From Candidatus Dormibacterales bacterium (GTDB lineage Bacteria > Chloroflexota > Dormibacteria > Dormibacterales > Dormibacteraceae), in assembly GCA_050735015.1 (NCBI GenBank), contig JBOHUY010000106.1, positions 1 to 33,357 on the forward strand: 33,357 nt of DNA, written 5' to 3'. The position numbers and the translations under genes were made by a program. Positions within the stretch are counted from its first letter, which is position 1. Each line of letters starts with the position of its first letter. Below are positions 1 to 9,573 of the stretch, in pieces. Below the pieces are notes generated by a model that ran no database searches, was not told the origin of the DNA, and worked only from the letters and a program-made list of their open reading frames with translations.

Positions 1-693
1 GCGCTCGAGCTGGGAGGCGATTCGGCCGAACGTCGACTCGGCCCCTGTCTGCACGACCACGCCGCGGCCGCGGCCCGACTTGACGACGGTCCCCATCAGC
101 GCGCAGGAAGGGAGGTCGAGTGGAGAATCGGGAGCTGACGACGGCCCCGATGTCTTCGCGGCCGGCATCGACTCTCCGGTCACCACCGCCTCGTCGCATT
201 CCAGCGCGCTGGTCTCGAGGAGTCTCATGTCGGCGGGGACGACGTCGCCGACATCGAGAAGGACGATGTCTCCCGGCACCAGCTCCGTCACGTCCACCTG
301 GTGCACGGTCGCGTCGCGCACGACGAGCGCCCGGTGGCGGATGCGAGCGTGGAGCTCCTCCGCCAGACGCTCGGAGCGGTACTCGTTGAAGAAGCTGAGG
401 CCGACGCTGAGGCCCGAGATGACGAGGATCATGGAGCCGTCGGTGTGATCGCCGAGGCCGAAAGAGATCAGGGCCCCGGCCGCAAGCAGGATCAAGAGCG
501 GATTGCGCAACTGCCTGAGCAACACGCCGAGGGCCGTCACCCGATGGCTTCCCAGGCTGTTCGGCCCCCAGCTCGCAAGCCGCGCCGCGGCTTCGCCCGA
601 CGTTAGACCGGCCGGGCTGCTGCTTCCGAGGCTTCGAAGGACTTCACGAGCGTCGAGGCGCGCCGCTTCCGCCAGGTCAGGGGACTCGCGCAC
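1..693 (-). CDS. P-type (E1-E2) cation-transporting ATPase, N-terminal part; the gene runs off the left edge of the window
   Basis: Absent from the ORF track because there is no stop in the window. Reverse translation in the frame ending at nt 1 reads ...EVLRSLGSSSPAGLTSGEAAARLASWGPNSLGSHRVTALGVLLRQLRNPLLILLAAGALISFGLGDHTDGSMILVISGLSVGLSFFNEYRSERLAEELHARIRHRALVVRDATVHQVDVTELVPGDIVLLDVGDVVPADMRLLETSALECDEAVVTGESMPAAKT...VVVQTGAESTFGRIASQLER. This covers the cation-ATPase N-terminal domain, TM1-TM2 and the TGES actuator motif. Start assigned to GTG at 693; an in-frame GTG at 738 is also possible. Confidence 0.85.
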   Translation of the reverse strand, partial: MRESPDLAEAARLDAREVLRSLGSSSPAGLTSGEAAARLASWGPNSLGSHRVTALGVLLRQLRNPLLILLAAGALISFGLGDHTDGSMILVISGLSVGLSFFNEYRSERLAEELHARIRHRALVVRDATVHQVDVTELVPGDIVLLDVGDVVPADMRLLETSALECDEAVVTGESMPAAKTSGPSSAPDSPLDLPSCALMGTVVKSGRGRGVVVQTGAESTFGRIASQLER

Positions 694-824
694 GTTTCCA
701 GCCTGCGGCGTTCGCGCCGCGGCAGGTAGAGCCGACACGGCCCCAAAGGCCGGGCCTTCGGGCTGGCGAAGCGGGGCCGGGCGGCCCGTGCTCCTCGGCC
801 CCGGGTTGCCAACACTGAGCGCAG

Positions 825-941
825 GGGAAGCACGATACGGGGCCGGAGTTCTTCCTAGGGCTCTCCGGTTCCGGCAGGGGGACACTCCCGATCGTGCTTC
901 CCGTGGCGGCGACTCCCGGGTTCAGATGGAGATGAACCCGG
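825..941 (-). promoter_or_regulatory. Structured region upstream of the P-type ATPase: long imperfect stem-loop plus a second hairpin; candidate leader RNA, class unknown
   Basis: GGGAAGCACGAT (825-836) is the exact reverse complement of ATCGTGCTTCCC (891-902). After a 1-nt bulge the pairing continues, 838-842 with 886-890. An inner hairpin pairs CCGGAG (843-848) with CTCCGG (863-868). A second hairpin pairs CCGGGTTCA (916-924) with TGAACCCGG (933-941) around an 8-nt loop. It lies about 130-250 nt upstream of the ATPase start on the same strand. Confidence 0.3.
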
Positions 942-1219: not shown

Positions 1220-1774
1220 TCAGGCCGTGGCCCGGAGGATGACCTTGTGCCGGGCTGGCCTGTGCAGCTGCATGAGCTCGAAGGCCAGTGCCCCGAGGAC
1301 TCCAATCGTCGCCACCAGGAGACCTATAGCGGCGTAGAGGGCGTACTCTCCGACCTGCCACCAGCCGTACGCGTTGAGCAGCGTCGCCCTCAGCATTGTG
1401 CCCTTGAAGAGGGTGTTGACCAGGCCCTGTAGCTGAGCGTTTTTGGGATCGGCCACAGCCGCCGCGCTGGCAGCAGCATAGGTATTGTAAGGCTTCATGG
1501 CCTTGAGGTGAACCGCGATGAAATCATTCGCGTAAACCCTCGCCTGGTCTCCGTTGACGACCTGCTGTCCGGCGTACAAGTGGATCTCCGCCGGGTACTC
1601 GGGAGCTGAGAGGACTCTCGCCGACGGGAATGCTATGTGCTGCGAGGCCAGCTGGTCACGGACCATGCCGTTCGCGAAGCTGGTCCCCCAGAAAAGGAAC
1701 CCCGTCAGGAATCCCAGCACCAGTACGATCACGACCTGAAGCGTGATCACGCGCCACCTGATTCCGGTTGTCAT
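1220..1774 (-). CDS. Hypothetical membrane protein with two predicted TM helices flanking an extracytoplasmic domain
   Basis: ORF track 1220..1804. The start was moved to the ATG at 1774 (MTTGIRWRVITLQVVIVLVLGFLTGFLFWG...) because AAAGGAGGCG sits 6-8 nt upstream. There is a C-terminal hydrophobic helix, YALYAAIGLLVATIGVLGALAF. I recognise no family. Confidence 0.7.
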   Translation of the reverse strand: MTTGIRWRVITLQVVIVLVLGFLTGFLFWGTSFANGMVRDQLASQHIAFPSARVLSAPEYPAEIHLYAGQQVVNGDQARVYANDFIAVHLKAMKPYNTYAAASAAAVADPKNAQLQGLVNTLFKGTMLRATLLNAYGWWQVGEYALYAAIGLLVATIGVLGALAFELMQLHRPARHKVILRATA

Positions 1775-1830
1775 CTTGATCGCCTCCTTTGGTTTCGGCA
1801 CCATTCAACTTCAGCGACGGAGCGATCGCA

Positions 1831-2440: not shown

Positions 2441-2989
2441 CTACGGTGGCCGCCTCAAGTAGGGACTATCGGCCCGACCGTGGCGGCCGCCGGGCGAGGG
2501 CCGCGGCCGCCGATAACCATCCTTGCCTCCCGGTGGCACGGCGAGCACCTCTCCCACGCGCTCGACGAAATCCCGCGCTGCGGCTTCGGCAACTCGATGG
2601 AGCAGGGCACGGTCGATGATGCTGCCCACGACCGAGAGCGGCGGCGTATAGCGGGCGGACAGGGAAAGCTGCGTCATGCGGGCACCCATCCGTGCCAGTT
2701 CGAGGTCGGCTTCAACGAACGGGAAGAGCCCCTCCTTCGACAAGGAGCGCCATGAGAGAGGTACCAGCAGTGTGCCGGCTGCTTCCGCCGGAACGCCTAC
2801 GCTGATCTCACCTCGCCGGCCAAGCCACCGGCGCCCTAGGTTGAACCCGACTTCGGCGAGCAGACGGTCTTCCCAATCGCCGCTGGCCCTGATCACATCC
2901 GGGAGCCAGGTGCTCGGTTCGTGCCCGAGGAGCCGTTCCTTGACCTCTGCGATCGACGCATCCAGCTCCAGGCACGCCTTTGTGAACAT
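2441..2989 (-). CDS. Hypothetical protein, soluble, no family recognised
   Basis: ORF track 2441..3160. The N-terminal 57 aa are Arg/Ser/Cys-rich and look non-coding, so the start was set at the ATG at 2989 (MFTKACLELDASIAEVKERLLGHEPSTWLPDVIRASGDWEDRLLAEVGF...). No clear RBS. Confidence 0.5.
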   Translation of the reverse strand: MFTKACLELDASIAEVKERLLGHEPSTWLPDVIRASGDWEDRLLAEVGFNLGRRWLGRRGEISVGVPAEAAGTLLVPLSWRSLSKEGLFPFVEADLELARMGARMTQLSLSARYTPPLSVVGSIIDRALLHRVAEAAARDFVERVGEVLAVPPGGKDGYRRPRPSPGGRHGRADSPYLRRPP

Positions 2990-3307
2990 CCTGAGATGTT
3001 GCAGCCGGAGCGACGCTCTCGGTAGGGCCGATCGGCATCTAATGCTGATGACCACCCGCTCCCCCCGAACCGGACTCGCGGGTCTGCACCGGGCCGTCCG
3101 TCCTCCCGAAGCAGAGCCGAGAGCCATGGTGACCAAGCCTGTGACTCCGTAGGCTGACAACCAGCGAGAAGCCTGATGGGCCAGGCGGCCACAATCAGTA
3201 TGAAGAGAGGAGACCGATCGACCTCAGGCTTCTCGCCTCAACCGCCTTCGGCGCTCAGCATCGCCCTTCCGTCCCAACCCAATTGCAGGAGAACGCCGTC
3301 ACGCCAA

Positions 3308-3349: not shown

Positions 3350-4327
3350 TTAGTTTGCGGCCGAACGATTGCTCGATTGTGCCGTTCGACGCGCCAAGTC
3401 CTGCTCGCGATAATGATCGCGCCAGATCAGGCGGTAGATGGGGACCAGTCGCGGTATGTCGCGGAACCCCGGAATGAAGGGAACCAACGCCAGCAGCGTG
3501 GTGAGGCCCAGCATCATGAGCACGACCAGGAGGTCGGCGTCGGAGGCGCTGTTGAACGGTGGCAGCTGGTACCACATCGTGAAGAGCCAGAGCCACGTCT
3601 GCCCCGGATAGCTCCCGGTCTCGTTCATCATTCCCCACTGATCGCCCATCAGGTGCTGCTGCTGCGCCAGCGCCGGCAGGTATCCGCCATCCCCCATGAA
3701 GAGCAGCGGCTTCGTGTAATCGGTCTGGTAGAAGCGGCCGCTGCGCACGAGCAGACCGTCCAGGCCTCCCGTGCGAGCGACGGTCAGAAGCGACGACATC
3801 ATGGTGGTGAGCGGGCCGTAGTGTCCAGTTGGAACAGTGACGACCCCATTCACGACTTCTGCGCGACCGAGTGCCTTGGCGTATGCGGATAGCCAGGTCT
3901 GCTGGGTGTCCCCACCTGCCGAGTTGTAGGTGCGGAGGGCACTCGTCAGGCCGGGGTTGCCGGCGCTCGCGTAGCCGAGTGGCCGGAGGACGAAGTCCTG
4001 CGCCGGGTTGACCGGCTGACGCGTCCCGAACCAGATCTGCGGGGCGAACGGTCCCCACGTCTGGACCGCTCCGGACCCCGTGGTGTATGGCGGACCATAG
4101 CCCGAACTGGTCGTCTGCCCGGCCAACTCTGCCGTGGCAGTGGTGACAAAATCCGCCGGCTGCGCCTGCGCCCACTTCTGGATCGTCAGCGGCGGCTCAT
4201 CAGGCGATGAGAGGACGGCAGAGAGGGCCAGTATGCCGAGCAACACCACACCGAGCGCGATCGCCAATTCTTTAACGAGATCGTAGGGGAGGGTTCTCAC
4301 GCCTCGGTAGTACAGCTCCTGGTCCAT
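3350..4327 (-). CDS. Membrane protein translationally coupled to cytochrome b6-like gene; possible subunit-IV / cytochrome b C-terminal analogue with a very large extracytoplasmic loop
   Basis: ORF track, 325 aa. Its ATG lies 1 nt after the upstream stop. It has an N-terminal TM (LAIALGVVLLGILALSAVL), roughly 200 aa of hydrophilic sequence, then WLWLFTMWYQLPPF followed by a TM (LLVVLMMLGLTTLLALVPFIPGF). Confidence 0.75.
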   Translation of the reverse strand: MDQELYYRGVRTLPYDLVKELAIALGVVLLGILALSAVLSSPDEPPLTIQKWAQAQPADFVTTATAELAGQTTSSGYGPPYTTGSGAVQTWGPFAPQIWFGTRQPVNPAQDFVLRPLGYASAGNPGLTSALRTYNSAGGDTQQTWLSAYAKALGRAEVVNGVVTVPTGHYGPLTTMMSSLLTVARTGGLDGLLVRSGRFYQTDYTKPLLFMGDGGYLPALAQQQHLMGDQWGMMNETGSYPGQTWLWLFTMWYQLPPFNSASDADLLVVLMMLGLTTLLALVPFIPGFRDIPRLVPIYRLIWRDHYREQDLARRTAQSSNRSAAN

Positions 4328-4328
4328 C

Positions 4329-4967
4329 TCACCTGACCTCCGGACGGCGCTCGATCGGCTTCACGACGCCTCGGAAACGGACCTGCATGAGGTGGATCCC
4401 CACCAGCGTGATGAGCAGGACCGGGAACATCAGGATGTGCAAACCGAACATCTGGCCGAAGTTGAGGACGTTGAAAAACGAGCCGACGCCGGTCGAGTTG
4501 ACGGCGTCTTTCGCATTGACCGCGATCCACTGCGAGTCGAAGTTCTGCTGCGCCAGGTAGCCAGTGAACGCGGTGACGATGCTGACCGCGAAGATGACGG
4601 ACCCGACCATCCATGTGGGTGCCCGACCGTGACGCCAGCTCTGCATGAAGAACTGGCCCCAGAGGTGCAGCACCATGAAGACGAAGAAGACCTGGGTGCT
4701 CCAGAAATGCATGCTGTTGAAGAAGCGTCCCGTCGCGCTCATGTGCCACCACTGGGGGCCCATGAAGGCGAGCACGGCGCCGCTGATCACCACCCAGATC
4801 AGCGCCGCCAGGGTGACGACGCCGAACACGTAGACCCAGGAGCCCACATAGGCGGGCTGGCGGTCGGGTAGCAGGTGCGCGTACGGCAGGTGCTTCTCGA
4901 GCCGGGAGCGGACGGCAATCGTCCAGCTGCCGGACGGATTGTCAACAGGGCGCGGTCTCAGACTCAT
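4329..4967 (-). CDS. Cytochrome b N-terminal domain protein (cytochrome b6-like, four helices, two heme-b His pairs)
   Basis: ORF track 4329..5090. The start was set at the ATG at 4967 (MSLRPRPVDNPSGSW...), which is preceded by GGGAGG plus a 6-nt spacer. His pairs are MHFWSTQVFFVFMVLH (13 residues between the His) and LHILMFPVLLITLVGIH (14 between). Other typical cytochrome b sequence: YVGSWVYVFGVVTLAALIWVVISG and FTGYLAQQN. Confidence 0.88.
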   Translation of the reverse strand: MSLRPRPVDNPSGSWTIAVRSRLEKHLPYAHLLPDRQPAYVGSWVYVFGVVTLAALIWVVISGAVLAFMGPQWWHMSATGRFFNSMHFWSTQVFFVFMVLHLWGQFFMQSWRHGRAPTWMVGSVIFAVSIVTAFTGYLAQQNFDSQWIAVNAKDAVNSTGVGSFFNVLNFGQMFGLHILMFPVLLITLVGIHLMQVRFRGVVKPIERRPEVR

Positions 4968-5116
4968 GGCCGGCCTCCCTTCGGCCGGTCGCCGTGCTTC
5001 GGAAACGGCAACACGATGGCGAGGCCGAAGACAAGGACCATGCCGGCGATCATCAGAGCGTTGGGTATCGAGATGCTGATGAAGCCCCAATGCAAGTAGC
5101 TGGCAGGTGTATCCAC
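4964..5116 (-). CDS. Small (50 aa) single-TM protein, first gene of the cytochrome b module; too short for the ORF track
   Basis: GTG at 5116 is preceded by GGAGGA with a 5-6 nt spacer. Translation: (M)DTPASYLHWGFISISIPNALMIAGMVLVFGLAIVLPFPKHGDRPKGGRP. Its TGA stop (4964-4966) overlaps the cytochrome b ATG (4965-4967) in an ATGA junction. Confidence 0.5.
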   Translation of the reverse strand: MDTPASYLHWGFISISIPNALMIAGMVLVFGLAIVLPFPKHGDRPKGGRP

Positions 5117-5609
5117 GTCTATCCTCCGTTTTCGGTTGATTAGACCCGAGGCTACCTTCCGCTGTGCACCCCCGACAGGGCCTTGTGGACGCCCGACCGG
5201 GGGCCGACCGGGCTACCGCGCACCGGGCCGGCCGGCCCCCACCCCAGGGTCGGACCCGCGAGTTGGCGAACGCCCCAGGGCGCGGTCCGATTCCCAGCGG
5301 GAGATCGCCGCCAGCGCCTCTCCGTCCCCGGGCGAATGTTCAGGCCTTCGCCCCGAGGCATCTGCCCCTCGACGACGCGGCCGAGGCGAGCCCGTTCACG
5401 GCCGCCAGTGCAACTCCCCGCGCGCCCGGGCGCCGGGTAGTACCTGGATACGTCGATGCCGCCGCGCGCTCTGCCACCGGCGCCTTGTGCTGCCCGGCGA
5501 CGCCGGCCATGGCTCCGGGGCGGCAGAGGCAATTGTGGGAGAAGGCTGGTTGACGGGAAACGTCCTCGGCCGACCGGGCCATTCGGCTCTACATGCAGGG
5601 TGCTGGCAC

Positions 5610-6287
5610 ATGCATGCTGAGATCGTGAATGCAGGCGGCCAGCCGCTCAGGGTGGTGCTAGTCGACGACCACGAGCTCGTCCGTGACGGGCTCAGGTTCT
5701 TCCTTGGCCAGGCAGGCGGGATCGAAGTGGTGGGCGAGGCGGCGAGCCCGGCCGACGCGGTCCGCGAGACTGAGCGAACCCGGCCGGACGTGGTGGTCAT
5801 GGACGTCCGCCTCGCAGGAGGGAGCGGGATCGAAGCCACGCGCGAGATTCGTGGCCGCGTCCCGGAGACGAAGGTCCTCATGCTGACCTCCTTTGCCGAC
5901 GACGAGGCGCTGCTGGCGTCCGTTCTGGCCGGTGCGTCGGGCTATGTGCCCAAGCGGTTCCGCACCGGCGAGCTGGTGCGCGCGATCCGGGACGTGGGCG
6001 CGGGGCAAAACCTGCTGGACACGCCGGCGACGAGCCAGGTCAGGGAACGCCTGCGCAAGGGCAAGCACCTCGTATCAGATGACCGGCTCGCCCGTCTCTC
6101 GCCACAGGAAGAGAGAATCCTGTCCCTCGTGGCTGAGGGCAAGACCAACCGCCAGATCGGGCAGGAGATGGGCTTGGCCGAGAAGACGGTCAAGAACTAC
6201 GTGTCGAGCGTGATGACCAAGCTCGAGGTCAGCCGCCGCGCCGAGGCGGCCGCGTACTTCGCGGGGCGCTCCGGAACGAGGGCTTAG
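5610..6287 (+). CDS. NarL/FixJ-family response regulator, DevR/DosR-like (receiver + LuxR-type HTH)
   Basis: ORF track 5136..6287. The first ~158 aa are Arg/Pro/Gly junk, so the start was set at the ATG at 5610 (MHAEIVNAGGQPLRVVLVDDHELVRDGL...). Receiver motifs DD, VVVMDVRL and GASGYVPK are present. HTH: LSPQEERILSLVAEGKTNRQIGQEMGLAEKTVKNYVSSVMTKLEV. Length 225 aa. Confidence 0.85.
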   Translation: MHAEIVNAGGQPLRVVLVDDHELVRDGLRFFLGQAGGIEVVGEAASPADAVRETERTRPDVVVMDVRLAGGSGIEATREIRGRVPETKVLMLTSFADDEALLASVLAGASGYVPKRFRTGELVRAIRDVGAGQNLLDTPATSQVRERLRKGKHLVSDDRLARLSPQEERILSLVAEGKTNRQIGQEMGLAEKTVKNYVSSVMTKLEVSRRAEAAAYFAGRSGTRA

Positions 6288-6431
6288 CAAATCCCCTTCC
6301 CGCCTGGCCGCCTCCCCACTCGGGTCGGAGGTGAGGTGGCATCGGGAAGCGGTCACCGAGGGGACCCGCGATTTCCCTGGATCGCCTTCGGCTGCGCCAA
6401 GGACCTCCCCCGGGCGCGAAGGCCGGCAGCG

Positions 6432-7109
6432 TCAGGCGCCCGACCGGGACGTCTTGCGGACGAGGTAGGCTGCGGCTTCGGCTCGGCGCCCGACCTCCAG
6501 TTTGCCCAGGATGCTGGAGACGTAGTTCTTGACCGTCTTGTCCGAGAGGCCCAGCTCGATCCCGATCTCGCGGTTGGTCTTGCCTTCTGCGACCAGCCTC
6601 AGGATTCTCTCCTCGTGGGGACTGAGCCGCCCCAGCTTCTCGTCCTTGAAGAGATCCTTCGCTCCCCGGAGCTTCTCGAGGAGAGGAGCCGTCATCGTGG
6701 GGTCCAGCAGAGCCTTCCCCTCCCCGACGGCCCGCACCGCGCGGACCAGATCCTCTCGGTGCACCTCCTTGAGGACGTAGCCGGAAGCACCGGCCAGGAT
6801 GGAGGCGAAGAGCGCCTCCTCGTCGGCGTAGGTGGTGAGCATCAGGACCTTGGTCTCCGGCCGCTCGGCACGGATCTGGCGCGTGGCGTCGATGCCGCTC
6901 CCGTCGCCCAGACTCACATCCATGATCACCAGCTCGGGGTGGACAGCCGAGGCTCGGCTGACCGCCTCGCGGACCGACCCTGCCTCGGCCACCACCGCGA
7001 AGTCGGGTTGAGCCTCGAGCAGACCGCGGATCCCGTGGCGGACCACCTCGTGGTCGTCCACGATCATGATCCGGAGCCGGTGACCCTGGCCGCCGGGAGG
7101 GACCTCCAT
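6432..7109 (-). CDS. NarL/FixJ-family response regulator, DevR/DosR-like; paralogue of 5610-6287
   Basis: C-terminal 225 aa of track ORF 6432..8084. Starts at the ATG at 7109 (MEVPPGGQGHRLRIMIVDDHEVVRHGI...). Contains LVIMDVSLGDGSGIDATRQIR, GASGYVLK and LSPHEERILRLVAEGKTNREIGIELGLSDKTVKNYVSSILGKLEV. Confidence 0.9.
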   Translation of the reverse strand: MEVPPGGQGHRLRIMIVDDHEVVRHGIRGLLEAQPDFAVVAEAGSVREAVSRASAVHPELVIMDVSLGDGSGIDATRQIRAERPETKVLMLTTYADEEALFASILAGASGYVLKEVHREDLVRAVRAVGEGKALLDPTMTAPLLEKLRGAKDLFKDEKLGRLSPHEERILRLVAEGKTNREIGIELGLSDKTVKNYVSSILGKLEVGRRAEAAAYLVRKTSRSGA

Positions 7110-7116
7110 GCGGGTC

Positions 7117-7126
7117 AAACTACCAT
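7117..7126. promoter_or_regulatory. Back-to-back candidate -10 boxes in the 21-36 nt gap between the divergent regulator and kinase genes
   Basis: Plus-strand TACCAT (7121-7126, TAnnnT) lies 4 nt before GTG 7131 and about 19 nt before TTG 7146. Minus-strand TAGTTT (7122-7117) has 7 nt between it and the regulator ATG at 7109, a spacing typical of leaderless transcripts. Confidence 0.3.
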
Positions 7127-7145
7127 CACGGTGAGGAAAGAGGGA

Positions 7146-9008
7146 TTGACCGATCCATCCGATCTCTTCGCGCGTGTCTTCGACGCCATGCCCGACGGCG
7201 TCGTGGTCGTGGACGGGGGTGGGCTGATCACCCAGGTCAACCGCCAGATGGAACTCCTCTCCGGCTACCCACGCGAGGAGCTCCGGGGAAAGCCGATCGA
7301 GGTGCTGGTGCCGGCCCCCTACCGAGGCGCTCACGAAACCGATCGCTCGCACTACACACTCGCTCCCGCCCGCCGCGCGATGGGCACGAACCTCGACATC
7401 CACATGCGGCGGAAGGACCGCACCGAGTTTCCGGCGGACATCTCGCTGAGCCCCGTGGAGACAGACACGGGCGTGATGGTGGTCGCCGCGGTCCGTGATA
7501 TCTCGGAGCGCAGGGCCGCCGAGAGCGCGCTGCGTGCAGAGCAGGAGCGTTTTCGCCAGGTGGTGGAGACCGTCAGGGACTACGCGATTTTCATGCTCGA
7601 CCCTGGCGGTCGCGTCACAACGTGGAACCGCGGTGCGGCCGCCATCAACGGTTACACGGGCGAAGAGATCGTCGGGCAGAGCTTCGCGGTCTTCTATCCG
7701 CCCGAGGACATCGCGGCAGGCAAGCCGGGCCGGCAGCTCGAGCAGGCGGCCGAGGAAGGGCGGGTGGAGGGCGCCGGGTGGCGGGTGAGGAAGGACGGCA
7801 GCCGGTTCTGGGCCTACGTGGTGATCACGCCCATCTTCGACGAATCGAGCGCCCTCACCGGGTTCTCCAAGATCACCCGCGACGCCAGCCGCGAGCGGCG
7901 CGAGCGCGAGCGCATCGAAGGCCTCCTCGCAATCTCGGACGCGATCCTGTCCGGCCAGGAGCTCGGCACGATCCTGGTCTTGATCGCGGCCCGGGCTCGC
8001 AGTCTTGTCGAGGGAGCAACCGGAACCGTCGCGATTCCCGCGCCGGACGGCGACGAGTACGTCATCGAAGTCGCTGAAGGCCATGCCGCGGACCGCCTTC
8101 GCGGCCGGCGTCTGCCGCTGGGCGGGTCACTCACCGCGCAGGTCCTTCGCTCCCACTCCGCGGTGTTGGTCGAGGATCTCAGTACCGACCTCCGCTCCTA
8201 CACGGCGGTGGCGGAACCTGTCGGCCACGGCCCAGGCATCCTGCTGCCACTCTTCGTCTCGGGCCACGACTTCGGGACCCTCTGCATCATCAACGCGCGA
8301 GGCGGAAGGCGGTTCACAGAGGAGGATCTTGAGCAGCTACAGGTATTTGCGGCGCAGGCGTCGGTCGCGCTCGAGCACGCCCGCCTGCAGCAGGAGCTGC
8401 AGCGGCTGGCGCTCGTGGAGGATCGGGAACGCATCGGAAGGGAGCTCCACGACGGTGCCGTCCAGGCGTTGTTCGCGGTGGGGATGAGCCTGCAGGCCGC
8501 CGAGGCGCTCACCCCCGACCCGAACCTCCGGCACCGGCTCGACGAGTCGGTCAAGCAGATAGACCAGGTGATTCAAGACCTGCGCAACTACATATTCGGC
8601 CTCCGGCCCGGCATCCTGGCGGACCGAGAGCTGGAGCAGGCGCTGCGAAAGCTGGCGGCTGACTTCGAGGAGGAAGCCGGCGTCACGACCGTGGTCGACG
8701 TCGACCTCCGGCTGTCGGCAGAACTCAGCAATCACGCCGGCGACCTCGTCCAGGTCGCCAGCGAGGCTCTTTCTAACGTGGCGCGCCACGCCGGCGCGAT
8801 GACGTGCCGCCTCACCCTGCACCGCGAGGACGGTTCCGCGGTGCTCGAGGTCGAGGACGACGGGCGGGGGTTCGACCCGCGGGCGCCCAGCCTCGGCCAG
8901 GGGCTGCGCAACTTCCGGGAGCGTGCGGCCGCCCTCGGGGGCGAGGTCTCGATCAGCTCGCAGGCGGGTGAGGGAACAACGGTCCAGGTCCGGATTCCGA
9001 CCAGGTAG
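7146..9008 (+). CDS. Soluble sensor histidine kinase: PAS-PAS-GAF-HisKA_3-HATPase_c
   Basis: C-terminal part of track ORF 6336..9008; upstream of 7110 that ORF is the antisense shadow of the regulator. PAS1 is FARVFDAMPDGVVVVDGGGLITQVN... and PAS2 is FRQVVETVRDYAIFMLDPGGRVTTWNRGAAAINGYTGEEIVG.... A GAF segment follows. The H-box is ERERIGRELHDGAVQ, the N-box EALSNVARHA, G1 DDGRGF and G2 GQGLRNFRERA. No TM segment. The start is TTG 7146, preceded by GAGGAAAGAGGG, or GTG 7131. Confidence 0.9.
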   Translation: MTDPSDLFARVFDAMPDGVVVVDGGGLITQVNRQMELLSGYPREELRGKPIEVLVPAPYRGAHETDRSHYTLAPARRAMGTNLDIHMRRKDRTEFPADISLSPVETDTGVMVVAAVRDISERRAAESALRAEQERFRQVVETVRDYAIFMLDPGGRVTTWNRGAAAINGYTGEEIVGQSFAVFYPPEDIAAGKPGRQLEQAAEEGRVEGAGWRVRKDGSRFWAYVVITPIFDESSALTGFSKITRDASRERRERERIEGLLAISDAILSGQELGTILVLIAARARSLVEGATGTVAIPAPDGDEYVIEVAEGHAADRLRGRRLPLGGSLTAQVLRSHSAVLVEDLSTDLRSYTAVAEPVGHGPGILLPLFVSGHDFGTLCIINARGGRRFTEEDLEQLQVFAAQASVALEHARLQQELQRLALVEDRERIGRELHDGAVQALFAVGMSLQAAEALTPDPNLRHRLDESVKQIDQVIQDLRNYIFGLRPGILADRELEQALRKLAADFEEEAGVTTVVDVDLRLSAELSNHAGDLVQVASEALSNVARHAGAMTCRLTLHREDGSAVLEVEDDGRGFDPRAPSLGQGLRNFRERAAALGGEVSISSQAGEGTTVQVRIPTR

Positions 9009-9009
9009 T

Positions 9010-9352
9010 GCTCCATCCGGGAAATGTGCTCGACCGCGGTTGACCTTCTCAAGAATCGGCTCGACTGACGCGGTCCAGACGAAGGCCTTGGGGTCGGCGT
9101 TGTGGGCTTCCATGTAACGATGAATGGCGGCTACCATTGCGCCCACGCCGCTGACGGATCCCCGGCGGATGGCCCGACTGGTGAGCTGACTGGACAGACC
9201 TCAGTCAGCTTGTACCAGGAGGAGCTGGTGGGCACGAGGTGGACGTGGAAGCGAGGCCGCTGAGACAGTCAGGCATTGAGCTTGGGATGCCCGTGGAGTC
9301 GCGCCGGGTGATCGGATGGCAGGTCGTGCACCGCGCCACTTGCAAAGTCATG
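9010..9352 (-). mobile_element. IS630-family transposase relic (C-terminal third only, inactivated)
   Basis: Minus-strand reading gives ...GHPKLNA*LSQRPRFHVHLVPTSSSWYKLTEV in one frame. After a frame change it gives GLSSQLTSRAIRRGSVSGVGAMVAAIHRYMEAHNADPKAFVWTASVEPILEKVNRGR. This matches the conserved IS630 tail (HPRFHxHFTPTSSSWLNxVExWF...IRRGSF...PFVWTK.A..ILEKV). It carries an in-frame TGA where Trp is expected, at least one frameshift, and no native stop. The N-terminal two-thirds are missing or unrecognisable. Confidence 0.7.
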
Positions 9353-9573
9353 CACCACGATCCTCAGCCGCACACCCCGACCCCCCGGCAGCGGGCGGAG
9401 GCGTGGTCCCAGACTGCGTCGAGCCCAGCTCGCCGGCGGGGGACGACCTCGCCCCCAGCGCCCGCCGCAGCCTGCGCCGGACGCGCCGCAGCTCTCGCTC
9501 CTCGACCGGCTCCAGCCACGCAGCGCGCCTTCTCAGCGCGGCGCGCAAGGAAGGCCAGGCCGGACGCTCGAGG

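Follow-up and report, generated by a model that had tools for sequence, protein, structure and literature searches.

A widespread three-gene module, probably a variant of the cytochrome b6/subunit IV core, without Rieske or cytochrome c neighbours, in a Dormibacterales contig

Few energy-converting enzymes have been studied as well as the Rieske/cytochrome b complexes, whose cytochrome b core is not known to work without a Rieske protein. One of these, the b6f complex, contains tiny one-helix subunits (PetG, PetL, PetM and PetN). Inward electron flow is known for dihaem cytochromes b of other kinds, namely the anchors of hydrogenases and formate dehydrogenases and the superoxide oxidase CybB. 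In Geobacter, the dihaem cytochrome b of CbcBA/CbcL carries menaquinol electrons to the outer face without a Rieske protein; CbcBA, whose dedicated regulator is encoded beside it, is induced at limiting energy or acceptor supply, and its CbcB is related to hydrogenase-type cytochromes b, not to b6, and is partnered by a multihaem cytochrome c (10.1101/2021.04.15.440034). Here we analyse three minus-strand genes (hereafter the trio) that encode a small protein, a b6-type cytochrome b and a large protein on a 33,357-nucleotide stretch of a Candidatus Dormibacterales genome. This stretch, the window of our analysis, is GC-rich (64-77% GC) and makes up all of contig C106 in a 2.5 Mb assembly in 402 contigs (~90% complete).

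The trio is a real, widespread and uncharacterised variant of the cytochrome b6/subunit IV core, from which it probably descends. As defined, the Rieske/cytochrome b complexes do not include it, because neither a Rieske 2Fe-2S subunit nor a c-type cytochrome (c1, f or dihaem c) is encoded with its cytochrome b. On balance we lean towards reading it as a quinone-linked, hypoxia- or redox-regulated transmembrane electron module derived from that core, with its outer face capped by a new domain. Full-text literature searches, incomplete in their coverage, returned no published description of such a trio.

A conserved dihaem cytochrome b unit without Rieske or cytochrome c neighbours

The trio begins with a small open reading frame (ORF; positions 4964-5116, minus strand) that starts at a GTG codon and whose translation gives 50 amino acids (aa) with one transmembrane helix. 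A Shine-Dalgarno sequence, GGAGGA, can be read at 5122-5127 on the same strand, 5 nucleotides 5′ of the GTG. The TGA stop of the small ORF and the ATG of the cytochrome b gene (4329-4967, minus strand; 212 aa plus stop) overlap as ATGA, and the large ORF (3350-4327, minus strand; 325 aa with two transmembrane helices in translation) has its ATG 1 nucleotide beyond the TGA of the cytochrome b gene. The three genes are therefore translationally coupled, in the order small ORF, cytochrome b, large ORF.

The 212-aa protein carries the cytochrome b N-terminal four-helix domain of the dihaem, b6 type, with four histidines for two b haems. It matches Pfam PF13631 (Cytochrom_B_N_2, 3.2e-12) and PF00033 (Cytochrome_B, 7.3e-7), and its top sequence matches in the PDB are the cytochrome b chains of bc1 and b6f complexes. 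The haem ligands H87/H101 (13 residues between) and H177/H192 (14 between) have the b6-type spacing and are invariant in 85 of 85 sequences. The protein contains no cysteine at all, including that of the helix-A CxGG motif to which haem cn is attached in b6f-type cytochrome b6, and therefore has no haem cn site. Both faces of the membrane are conserved. On the cytoplasmic side, conservation covers 'LLPxRQPxYVxSWxY', W111, R112, R115, W119, R197, G200 and P204, and on the outer side the cd loop (Q140-G175), the 'WWH' motif, whose histidine is kept in 77 of 85 sequences, and much of the large-subunit ectodomain are nearly invariant. In the small subunit S16 and N19 are present in all 80 sequences compared, Y7 in 72 and H9 in 67, and a 'PFP' motif is also conserved; its N-terminal 'P-A-x-Y-x-H-W-G-F' segment would face outward.

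The three genes travel as one unit. Among 87 related loci, taken from long metagenome contigs and species genomes, tblastn found the small ORF 5′ of cytochrome b, and the large ORF after it, in 82; the remaining five are cut by contig ends. Natural fusions are also found: in P0123 (554 aa) cytochrome b is continuous with the large protein, and P0125 (639 aa) is an in-frame fusion of small protein, cytochrome b and large protein, matching the gene order. The fusions fix the topology of the partners, with the small peptide N-out/C-in and both termini of the large protein inside and its middle domain outside; the Arg-rich tails of the large protein agree with this.

Among the matches listed, the trio occurs in at least 589 species genomes. 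The main carriers are Dormibacteria/Dormibacterota, Limnocylindria, other Chloroflexota and, in the Actinomycetota, Solirubrobacterales and Acidimicrobiales. More distant homologues are found in metagenome-assembled genomes (MAGs) of Bacteroidota and in the cultured Sulfobacillus acidophilus, where the gene order is the same and the homologue is annotated 'cytochrome b/b6 domain protein'. Within the phylum of the window, 40 of 201 sampled genomes have the trio (7/7 in the same family, 17/22 in the same class), usually in single copy. Three trio contigs whose homologue is 57-59% identical to the window protein are assigned to archaeal and Saccharimonadales MAGs (L039 and L062, labelled Micrarchaeaceae archaeon, and L053, labelled Saccharimonadales); these are probably mis-binned Dormibacteria contigs.

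We could not detect a Rieske motif or domain in the first 10 kb of the window and the neighbouring ORFs. In the same 10 kb no plausible gene contains CxxCH, which occurs only three times, always in non-coding frames. We extended the examination to 85 non-redundant related loci (±8-10 kb, 1.2 Mb in total). None has an ORF with a Rieske motif (loose six-frame matches are sporadic, in 5 of the 85), and the seven ORFs with CxxCH found near the trio do not adjoin it. Elsewhere the source genome has ten Rieske-domain frames, two beside a cytochrome b gene and eight further ones. Contig C144 carries a canonical operon of Rieske and long cytochrome b (about 7956-9415), and C22 a second Rieske/cytochrome b pair (155-1631). 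The trio thus adds a cytochrome b system to the canonical loci that the genome has elsewhere. In five genomes of the phylum (G003, G027, G028, G029 and G040) the trio is present and PF00032 has no match.

These data bear on the idea that the trio is a conventional Rieske/cytochrome b complex after all, its core recruiting a Rieske protein and acceptor encoded in trans and running an ordinary Q cycle. In its favour, several of the ten Rieske-domain frames do not lie beside cytochrome b, and conservation is high in the cd loop and the Qo-loop-like segment. The complete absence of nearby Rieske genes from the related loci speaks against it, as does the fact that both Rieske genes adjacent to cytochrome b are already placed in canonical operons.

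Most of what a first-pass annotation, made from the letters of the window alone, had said of the trio is borne out here. It had described three translationally coupled minus-strand genes, and their coordinates, lengths and transmembrane features agree with the sequence; the b6-type histidine spacing it noted is present, and the N-domain profile search that it proposed gave the PF13631 match. The survey it called for returned the trio as one conserved unit, separate or fused. Its statement that no Rieske or cytochrome c gene is adjacent extends to the related loci, and, judged from the contig and the related loci, no Rieske/cytochrome c pair that would make the complex conventional lies just outside the window.

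The large subunit and its relation to subunit IV

The large subunit starts with a cytoplasmic 'PYDLvKE' entry, followed by the helix E-like transmembrane helix 1 (residues 17-38), the ectodomain, the Qo-loop- or ef-helix-like segment 'PGQtWLWLfTmWYQlPP', the helix F-like transmembrane helix 2 (264-280) and a cytoplasmic tail that reads 'PFIPGfRDIPR..P..RLIWR'; the motif WLWLFTMWYQLPPF sits before the second helix. An AlphaFold2 model built from 45 sequences (predicted local distance difference test, pLDDT, 88.7; predicted template-modelling score, pTM, 0.78) shows an all-helical ectodomain (~49-252) and cytoplasmic helices, and about 190 aa of this (about 49-235) form an inserted helical domain. 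Invariant residues are D16, E20, Y77, G78, P80, Y81, Q89, P241, W245, Y253, P283, P286, P292 and W302; on the cytoplasmic side D16, K19, E20 and the C-tail are strongly conserved.

The family is large and nameless. Clustering at 90% identity gives at least 6119 groups of homologues, typically 60-70% identical; each is either unnamed or called 'hypothetical', and a Pfam domain is found in none. An exhaustive search of 50%-identity representatives gave 958 matches at E<=1e-3. The window protein itself has no match in Pfam or NCBIfam and none among PDB sequences (phmmer, E<=10), and Foldseek of its AlphaFold2 model against the PDB gave a best E of 0.96. One metagenomic homologue, P0128 (575 aa), has an extra cytoplasmic C-terminal extension of ~230 aa that is charged and coiled-coil-like.

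We also asked whether the outer domain generally has a third haem or a metal site, and rejected this. The domain has no cysteine, H225 varies (K/N/D), M177 and M234 are replaced by L and I in Sulfobacillus, and losses of the 'WWH' histidine of cytochrome b and of the small-peptide histidine do not coincide.

The relationship of the large subunit to subunit IV was analysed with HHalign, with 24 segments of cytochrome b C-domains or subunit IV, drawn from genomes of the same phylum (Chloroflexota), as targets. The full-length family profile aligned weakly with the helix E region (probability 10-25%, P ~1e-3). When residues 49-235 were excised, 103 columns aligned in order with helices E-F (probability 77%, P 2e-5, score 36.5). 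Reversed query or template, in contrast, scored ~20 (probability <=3%), window-shuffled columns 16.6 on average (standard deviation 2.4, maximum 23.1), swapped halves 25.8, and ten decoy families of multi-transmembrane proteins from the same loci 11-21 (probability <=2.1%). The N-terminal half of the profile alone aligned onto the helix E region with a score of 24.9 (P 2.6e-4). The topology of the large subunit, too, follows the order helix E, ef loop, helix F of cytochrome b C-domains and subunit IV, of which only helices E and F have equivalents; helix G is missing.

Matching motifs run in the same order along both proteins. 'VPYDLVKE' of the large subunit corresponds to 'WPHLLVRE' or 'FFPDxxxKD' of canonical Chloroflexota proteins, 'SSPDxPP' to 'APLExxADP', 'PGQ(T/A)WLWLYTxWYQIPP' to 'PRPEWYFLFLFxLLKYFP', and LVPFIPGLRDIPR to LVPFLDRNPSRRP and 'LLPFLDRSPRR' of canonical Chloroflexota subunit IV. 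In the HHalign alignment the tryptophan of PEWY is equivalent to the invariant W245 in 'PGQ(T/A)WLW', and the position of the Qo-motif glutamate is Thr or Ala, so that the motif reads Q(T/A)WL. Taken together, these comparisons moderately support homology of the large subunit with subunit IV and the cytochrome b C-domain.

Structure prediction of the natural triple fusion was compared with known folds by Foldseek. Full-length cytochrome b chains of bc1 ranked first (E from 2.7e-5, 450-520 columns, target-normalised TM-score 0.42-0.49), whereas chains with b6 only gave E ~1e-2 (1.4e-2), at a target-normalised TM-score of 0.62-0.69 and a root-mean-square deviation (rmsd) of 3.5-4.9 Å. This ranking of a predicted model is weakly consistent with a subunit IV origin.

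The architecture of the large subunit provides further evidence against a Rieske protein acting in trans. The very loop that makes up the Rieske docking surface carries the ~190-aa ectodomain as an insertion, and the proton-accepting Glu/Asp of the Qo site is replaced by Thr/Ala, although canonical complexes of the APWY type, which lack a carboxylate at this position, exist (PMC4122944). Such APWY-type sequences are also present among the canonical proteins of this phylum. With both sets of evidence considered, we regard a conventional complex completed in trans as quite unlikely.

The first-pass annotation had suggested that the big loop could be a novel periplasmic domain, and the AlphaFold2 model, the fusions and Foldseek bear this out: the large subunit has two transmembrane helices, and its middle domain faces outward and has no detectable known fold. 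The haem-binding or cofactor motifs that it proposed to look for in the loop were not found there (no cysteine, no universal histidine or methionine). Its placing of a WY-x-LP-F element at the PEWY position holds in that the Qo glutamate is lost, but W252-Y253 falls in the ef helix and the equivalent residue is W245. Likewise, its link to subunit IV is recovered for helices E-F after excision, but not for helix G or by the PF00032 profile.

Neighbouring genes and regulation

Upstream of the trio the window encodes regulators. A NarL/FixJ-family response regulator of 225 aa (5610-6287, plus strand; Pfam Response_reg and GerE) is divergent from the trio and is its candidate regulator; a second NarL-family response regulator, also of 225 aa (6432-7109, minus strand), was found by the NCBIfam scan, and it is followed by a soluble histidine kinase with Pfam domains PAS-PAS-GAF-HisKA_3 (7131-9008, plus strand). 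An ORF spanning 6336-9008 was rejected as a single gene; it is over-extended, and the locus consists of two convergent NarL-family regulators and the kinase at 7131-9008. The PAS region of the kinase resembles haem-PAS sensors (NCBIfam DosP 2.6e-24 and FixL 7e-20, both below cut-off).

Downstream of the trio lie a soluble protein of ~185 aa (2441-3010, minus strand) and a protein with two transmembrane helices and an outer domain (1220-1804, minus strand), neither with a Pfam or NCBIfam match, and the N-terminal part of a P-type cation ATPase (1-885, minus strand; Cation_ATPase_N and E1-E2_ATPase) that is cut by the contig end. Homologues of the first two recur near the trio in 5-6 other loci (clusters c17 and c23, respectively), and a P-type ATPase similar to that of the window is also near the trio in locus L005. 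An ATPase in this position recalls CtpF of the mycobacterial DosR regulon.

The frequencies of neighbours were obtained by clustering crude ORFs of the 85 related loci. A NarL-type response regulator neighbours the trio in 23 of them, and a GAF-GAF-HisKA_3 kinase with the architecture of DosS/DosT in 17, where a rough estimate gives ~1 locus by chance. A fusion of ~900 aa between a Pat-like GNAT acetyltransferase and an ADP-forming acyl-CoA synthetase is found near the trio in 16 loci (for example at 12511-15234 in L001 and 10490-13213 in L028), phosphoketolase and acetate kinase in six loci each, and P-type ATPases in five. Genes for Usp and cytochrome bd were seen in individual loci, and three (L001-L003) have cydAB and an ABC-transporter pair (cydDC-like) nearby. 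The Pat-like fusion, phosphoketolase, acetate kinase and cydAB look like neighbours from hypoxic or fermentative metabolism. In Sulfobacillus a Crp/Fnr regulator and ctaA adjoin the trio. A 'cytochrome b' of the Streptomyces OsdR regulon, considered as a counterpart, turned out to be a fumarate reductase/succinate dehydrogenase anchor.

Of 81 related loci, 15 have the palindrome GGGAC-N4-GTCCC (<=1 mismatch) upstream of the trio, where shuffled sequences would give 2.4. The excess is clear only at a spacer of 4 and weaker at a spacer of 3 (7 vs 2.1 expected), and the palindromes often lie at -75 or -126. We take this sequence to match the core of the mycobacterial DosR box. In the window, a perfect 14-bp palindrome, GGGCCGGCCGGCCC (5225-5238), lies 109-122 nucleotides upstream of the small ORF. 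It has two mismatches to GGGAC-N4-GTCCC and is a candidate DosR-box-like operator of the form GGGNC-N4-GNCCC. Four of the seven palindromes of this form in the window are within its first 5.3 kb (774-787, 1832-1845, 2462-2475 and 5225-5238), three of them directly upstream of minus-strand genes, namely the ATPase (in its leader), the gene for the protein with two transmembrane helices (which starts at 1804) and the trio. This clustering suggests a small co-regulated island.

Regulation of the trio family by oxygen, nitric oxide (NO) or redox sensing is thus well supported, and the same regulation is plausible for the copy in the window, judging from its sequence. The 'DosR-like' neighbours of the first-pass annotation stand in the sense that redox- or hypoxia-type two-component systems recur beside the trio, but the window's own regulators do not reach the equivalog cut-offs.

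The nearby kinases also raise the converse arrangement, in which the trio is itself a membrane redox sensor or scaffold, its haems reporting the quinone pool or O2/NO and its tail signalling to the soluble PAS/GAF kinases, or in which it stabilises another respiratory enzyme. That the kinases encoded nearby are soluble, and that the cytoplasmic tail ('RDIPRW.P..RLIWR') is strongly conserved, would suit such a role. About 60 of the 85 loci, however, have no adjacent two-component system, the upstream palindromes suggest that the module is a target of regulation and not the sensor, and the whole ectodomain is 55-70% identical across phyla, which goes beyond the needs of a sensor input. We consider a sensor or scaffold very unlikely.

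Electron transfer and comparison with known systems

The reading that we lean towards, a quinone-linked electron wire, is favoured because both membrane faces of the trio are strongly conserved. The three genes would encode one membrane complex descended from the cytochrome b6/subunit IV core of Rieske/cytochrome b complexes. Its 212-aa subunit would hold two b haems spanning the membrane, the 325-aa subunit would provide the equivalents of helices E and F, the loop between them having grown into the outer helical domain without cofactor motifs, and the 50-aa protein would be a single-helix accessory subunit. The new domain would thereby be placed on the outer face, the normal seat of the Rieske head and of cytochrome c1 or f. 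Menaquinone or menaquinol may bind at a retained cytoplasmic Qi-like site to which cytochrome b would contribute its conserved loops and the large subunit its 'PYDLvKE' entry; these conserved cytoplasmic elements presumably correspond to those that build the Qi site of bc complexes, such as 'PYYxIKD', with the Qi Lys-Asp, of mitochondrial cytochrome b. Electrons would pass the membrane via the two haems, and the partner or substrate with which they are exchanged on the outer side would be bound by the ectodomain and the conserved cd loop. Expression would be under an O2/NO/redox-sensing NarL-type two-component system, DosRS-like in many relatives, and the module would serve cells short of oxygen as an auxiliary outlet for electrons or as a route of redox balancing.

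As to direction, we infer that export from menaquinol is likelier than import. In the reverse case the trio would be the electron-import arm of a redox loop: an outer donor would reduce the outer haem, menaquinone would be reduced at the cytoplasmic side, and a proton-motive force would be generated. Import needs the same architecture as export, the Qi-like residues D16, K19 and E20 are conserved, and such a function is known for other dihaem cytochromes b. Yet no dehydrogenase gene is linked to the trio in any of the 85 loci, the ectodomain has no cofactor motifs, and a donor below the potential of menaquinone would need a catalyst. Import therefore appears unlikely.

Several observations weigh against the quinone-linked, regulated module derived from a b6/subunit IV core. 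With respect to its origin, Pfam Cytochrom_B_C (PF00032) matches neither the large subunit (E<=1) nor six relatives (E<=10); the HHalign probability varies from 6% to 77% with the excision junction, which was picked after inspection; and the triple-fusion model has a moderate pLDDT of 70.6, falling below 50 in the 'PGQxWLW' segment, and superposes on long cytochrome b with an rmsd of ~20 Å. With respect to electron transfer, the ectodomain has no cysteine and, in the family alignment, no universally conserved histidine or methionine, and therefore no visible redox cofactor to pass electrons on. Quinol oxidation of the Qo type is chemically unfavourable without a high-potential acceptor, and a classical Qo reaction is unlikely because the trio has no high-potential first acceptor. 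Nor does the trio track the content of haem-copper oxidases within the phylum, as COX1 is found in 35 of 40 trio-bearing genomes vs 162 of 201 overall. With respect to regulation, all three regulators of the window (two NarL-family proteins and one kinase) score below every NCBIfam equivalog cut-off, and GGGNC-N4-GNCCC is not enriched window-wide (7 found vs 7.7 expected), the GGGCCGGCCGGCCC site alone not being significant.

A bolder version of the quinone-linked module is possible, though we hold it only tentatively. The trio may represent an unrecognised, widespread class of respiratory enzyme, a Rieske-independent descendant of b6/subunit IV in which the cofactor-free ectodomain, the cd loop and the outer-face 'WWH' form a new site for catalysis or acceptor binding beside the outer haem and which works as a menaquinol-linked outlet or inlet under oxygen limitation. 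If this is true, a Rieske-free class spans monoderm soil and acid-habitat bacteria (Chloroflexota/Dormibacteria, Actinomycetota and Sulfobacillus).

The trio matters as a derivative of the b6 core that has lost both high-potential partners and gained a large conserved outer domain, in hundreds of species of abundant, poorly cultured soil phyla, where it appears to be tied to dormancy and hypoxia regulation. It would test whether a dihaem b core can run a Rieske-free reaction. Once its substrate is found, the respiratory chains of Dormibacteria, Chloroflexota and Actinomycetota would gain a further component, and the cultured carrier Sulfobacillus acidophilus makes the function directly testable.

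Among described systems, Geobacter CbcBA/CbcL resembles the trio by functional analogy only, as a Rieske-less dihaem quinol oxidoreductase. Unlike CbcBA, the trio has no c-type haem motif, and we rejected CbcBA as a homologue, CbcB being related to hydrogenase-type anchors (10.1101/2021.04.15.440034). ExtP (NF040969), from a selenite/tellurite reduction operon, is likewise a b6-like cytochrome used outside a Rieske complex, and it is the best NCBIfam match of the trio cytochrome b; the score of 59.2 bits against a curated cut-off of 290, however, means that the latter is not a member, and the partner proteins are unrelated.

Long cytochromes b of bc1 and bcc complexes (6kls_B, 7q21_B and 6nin_A) are the top Foldseek matches of the fusion model and the top PDB sequence matches of the trio cytochrome b. 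The 'PY..xK[DE]' motif of the large subunit resembles what we take to be its Qi-site counterpart in mitochondrial cytochrome b. Unlike these proteins, the trio superposes poorly, has no helices G and H and is without Rieske and c1 partners.

PetB/PetD of b6f and the split QcrB/QcrC of Bacillus-type menaquinol:cytochrome c reductases differ from the trio in having a Rieske protein, cytochrome f or c and the cysteine for haem cn; the partner in the trio has two helices and not three, carries the additional domain in its ef loop, has Q(T/A)WL in place of PEWY and does not match PF00032. In other respects the trio is built as these systems are. Cytochrome b is split after helix D, the haem ligands have the 13/14 spacing, the gene order is b6 and then the partner, and the partner starts with 'P-x-x-L-x-[KR]-[DE]' leading into helix E and has a helix F that ends in 'VPF..R..P.R'; as in b6f, there is also a tiny one-helix subunit.

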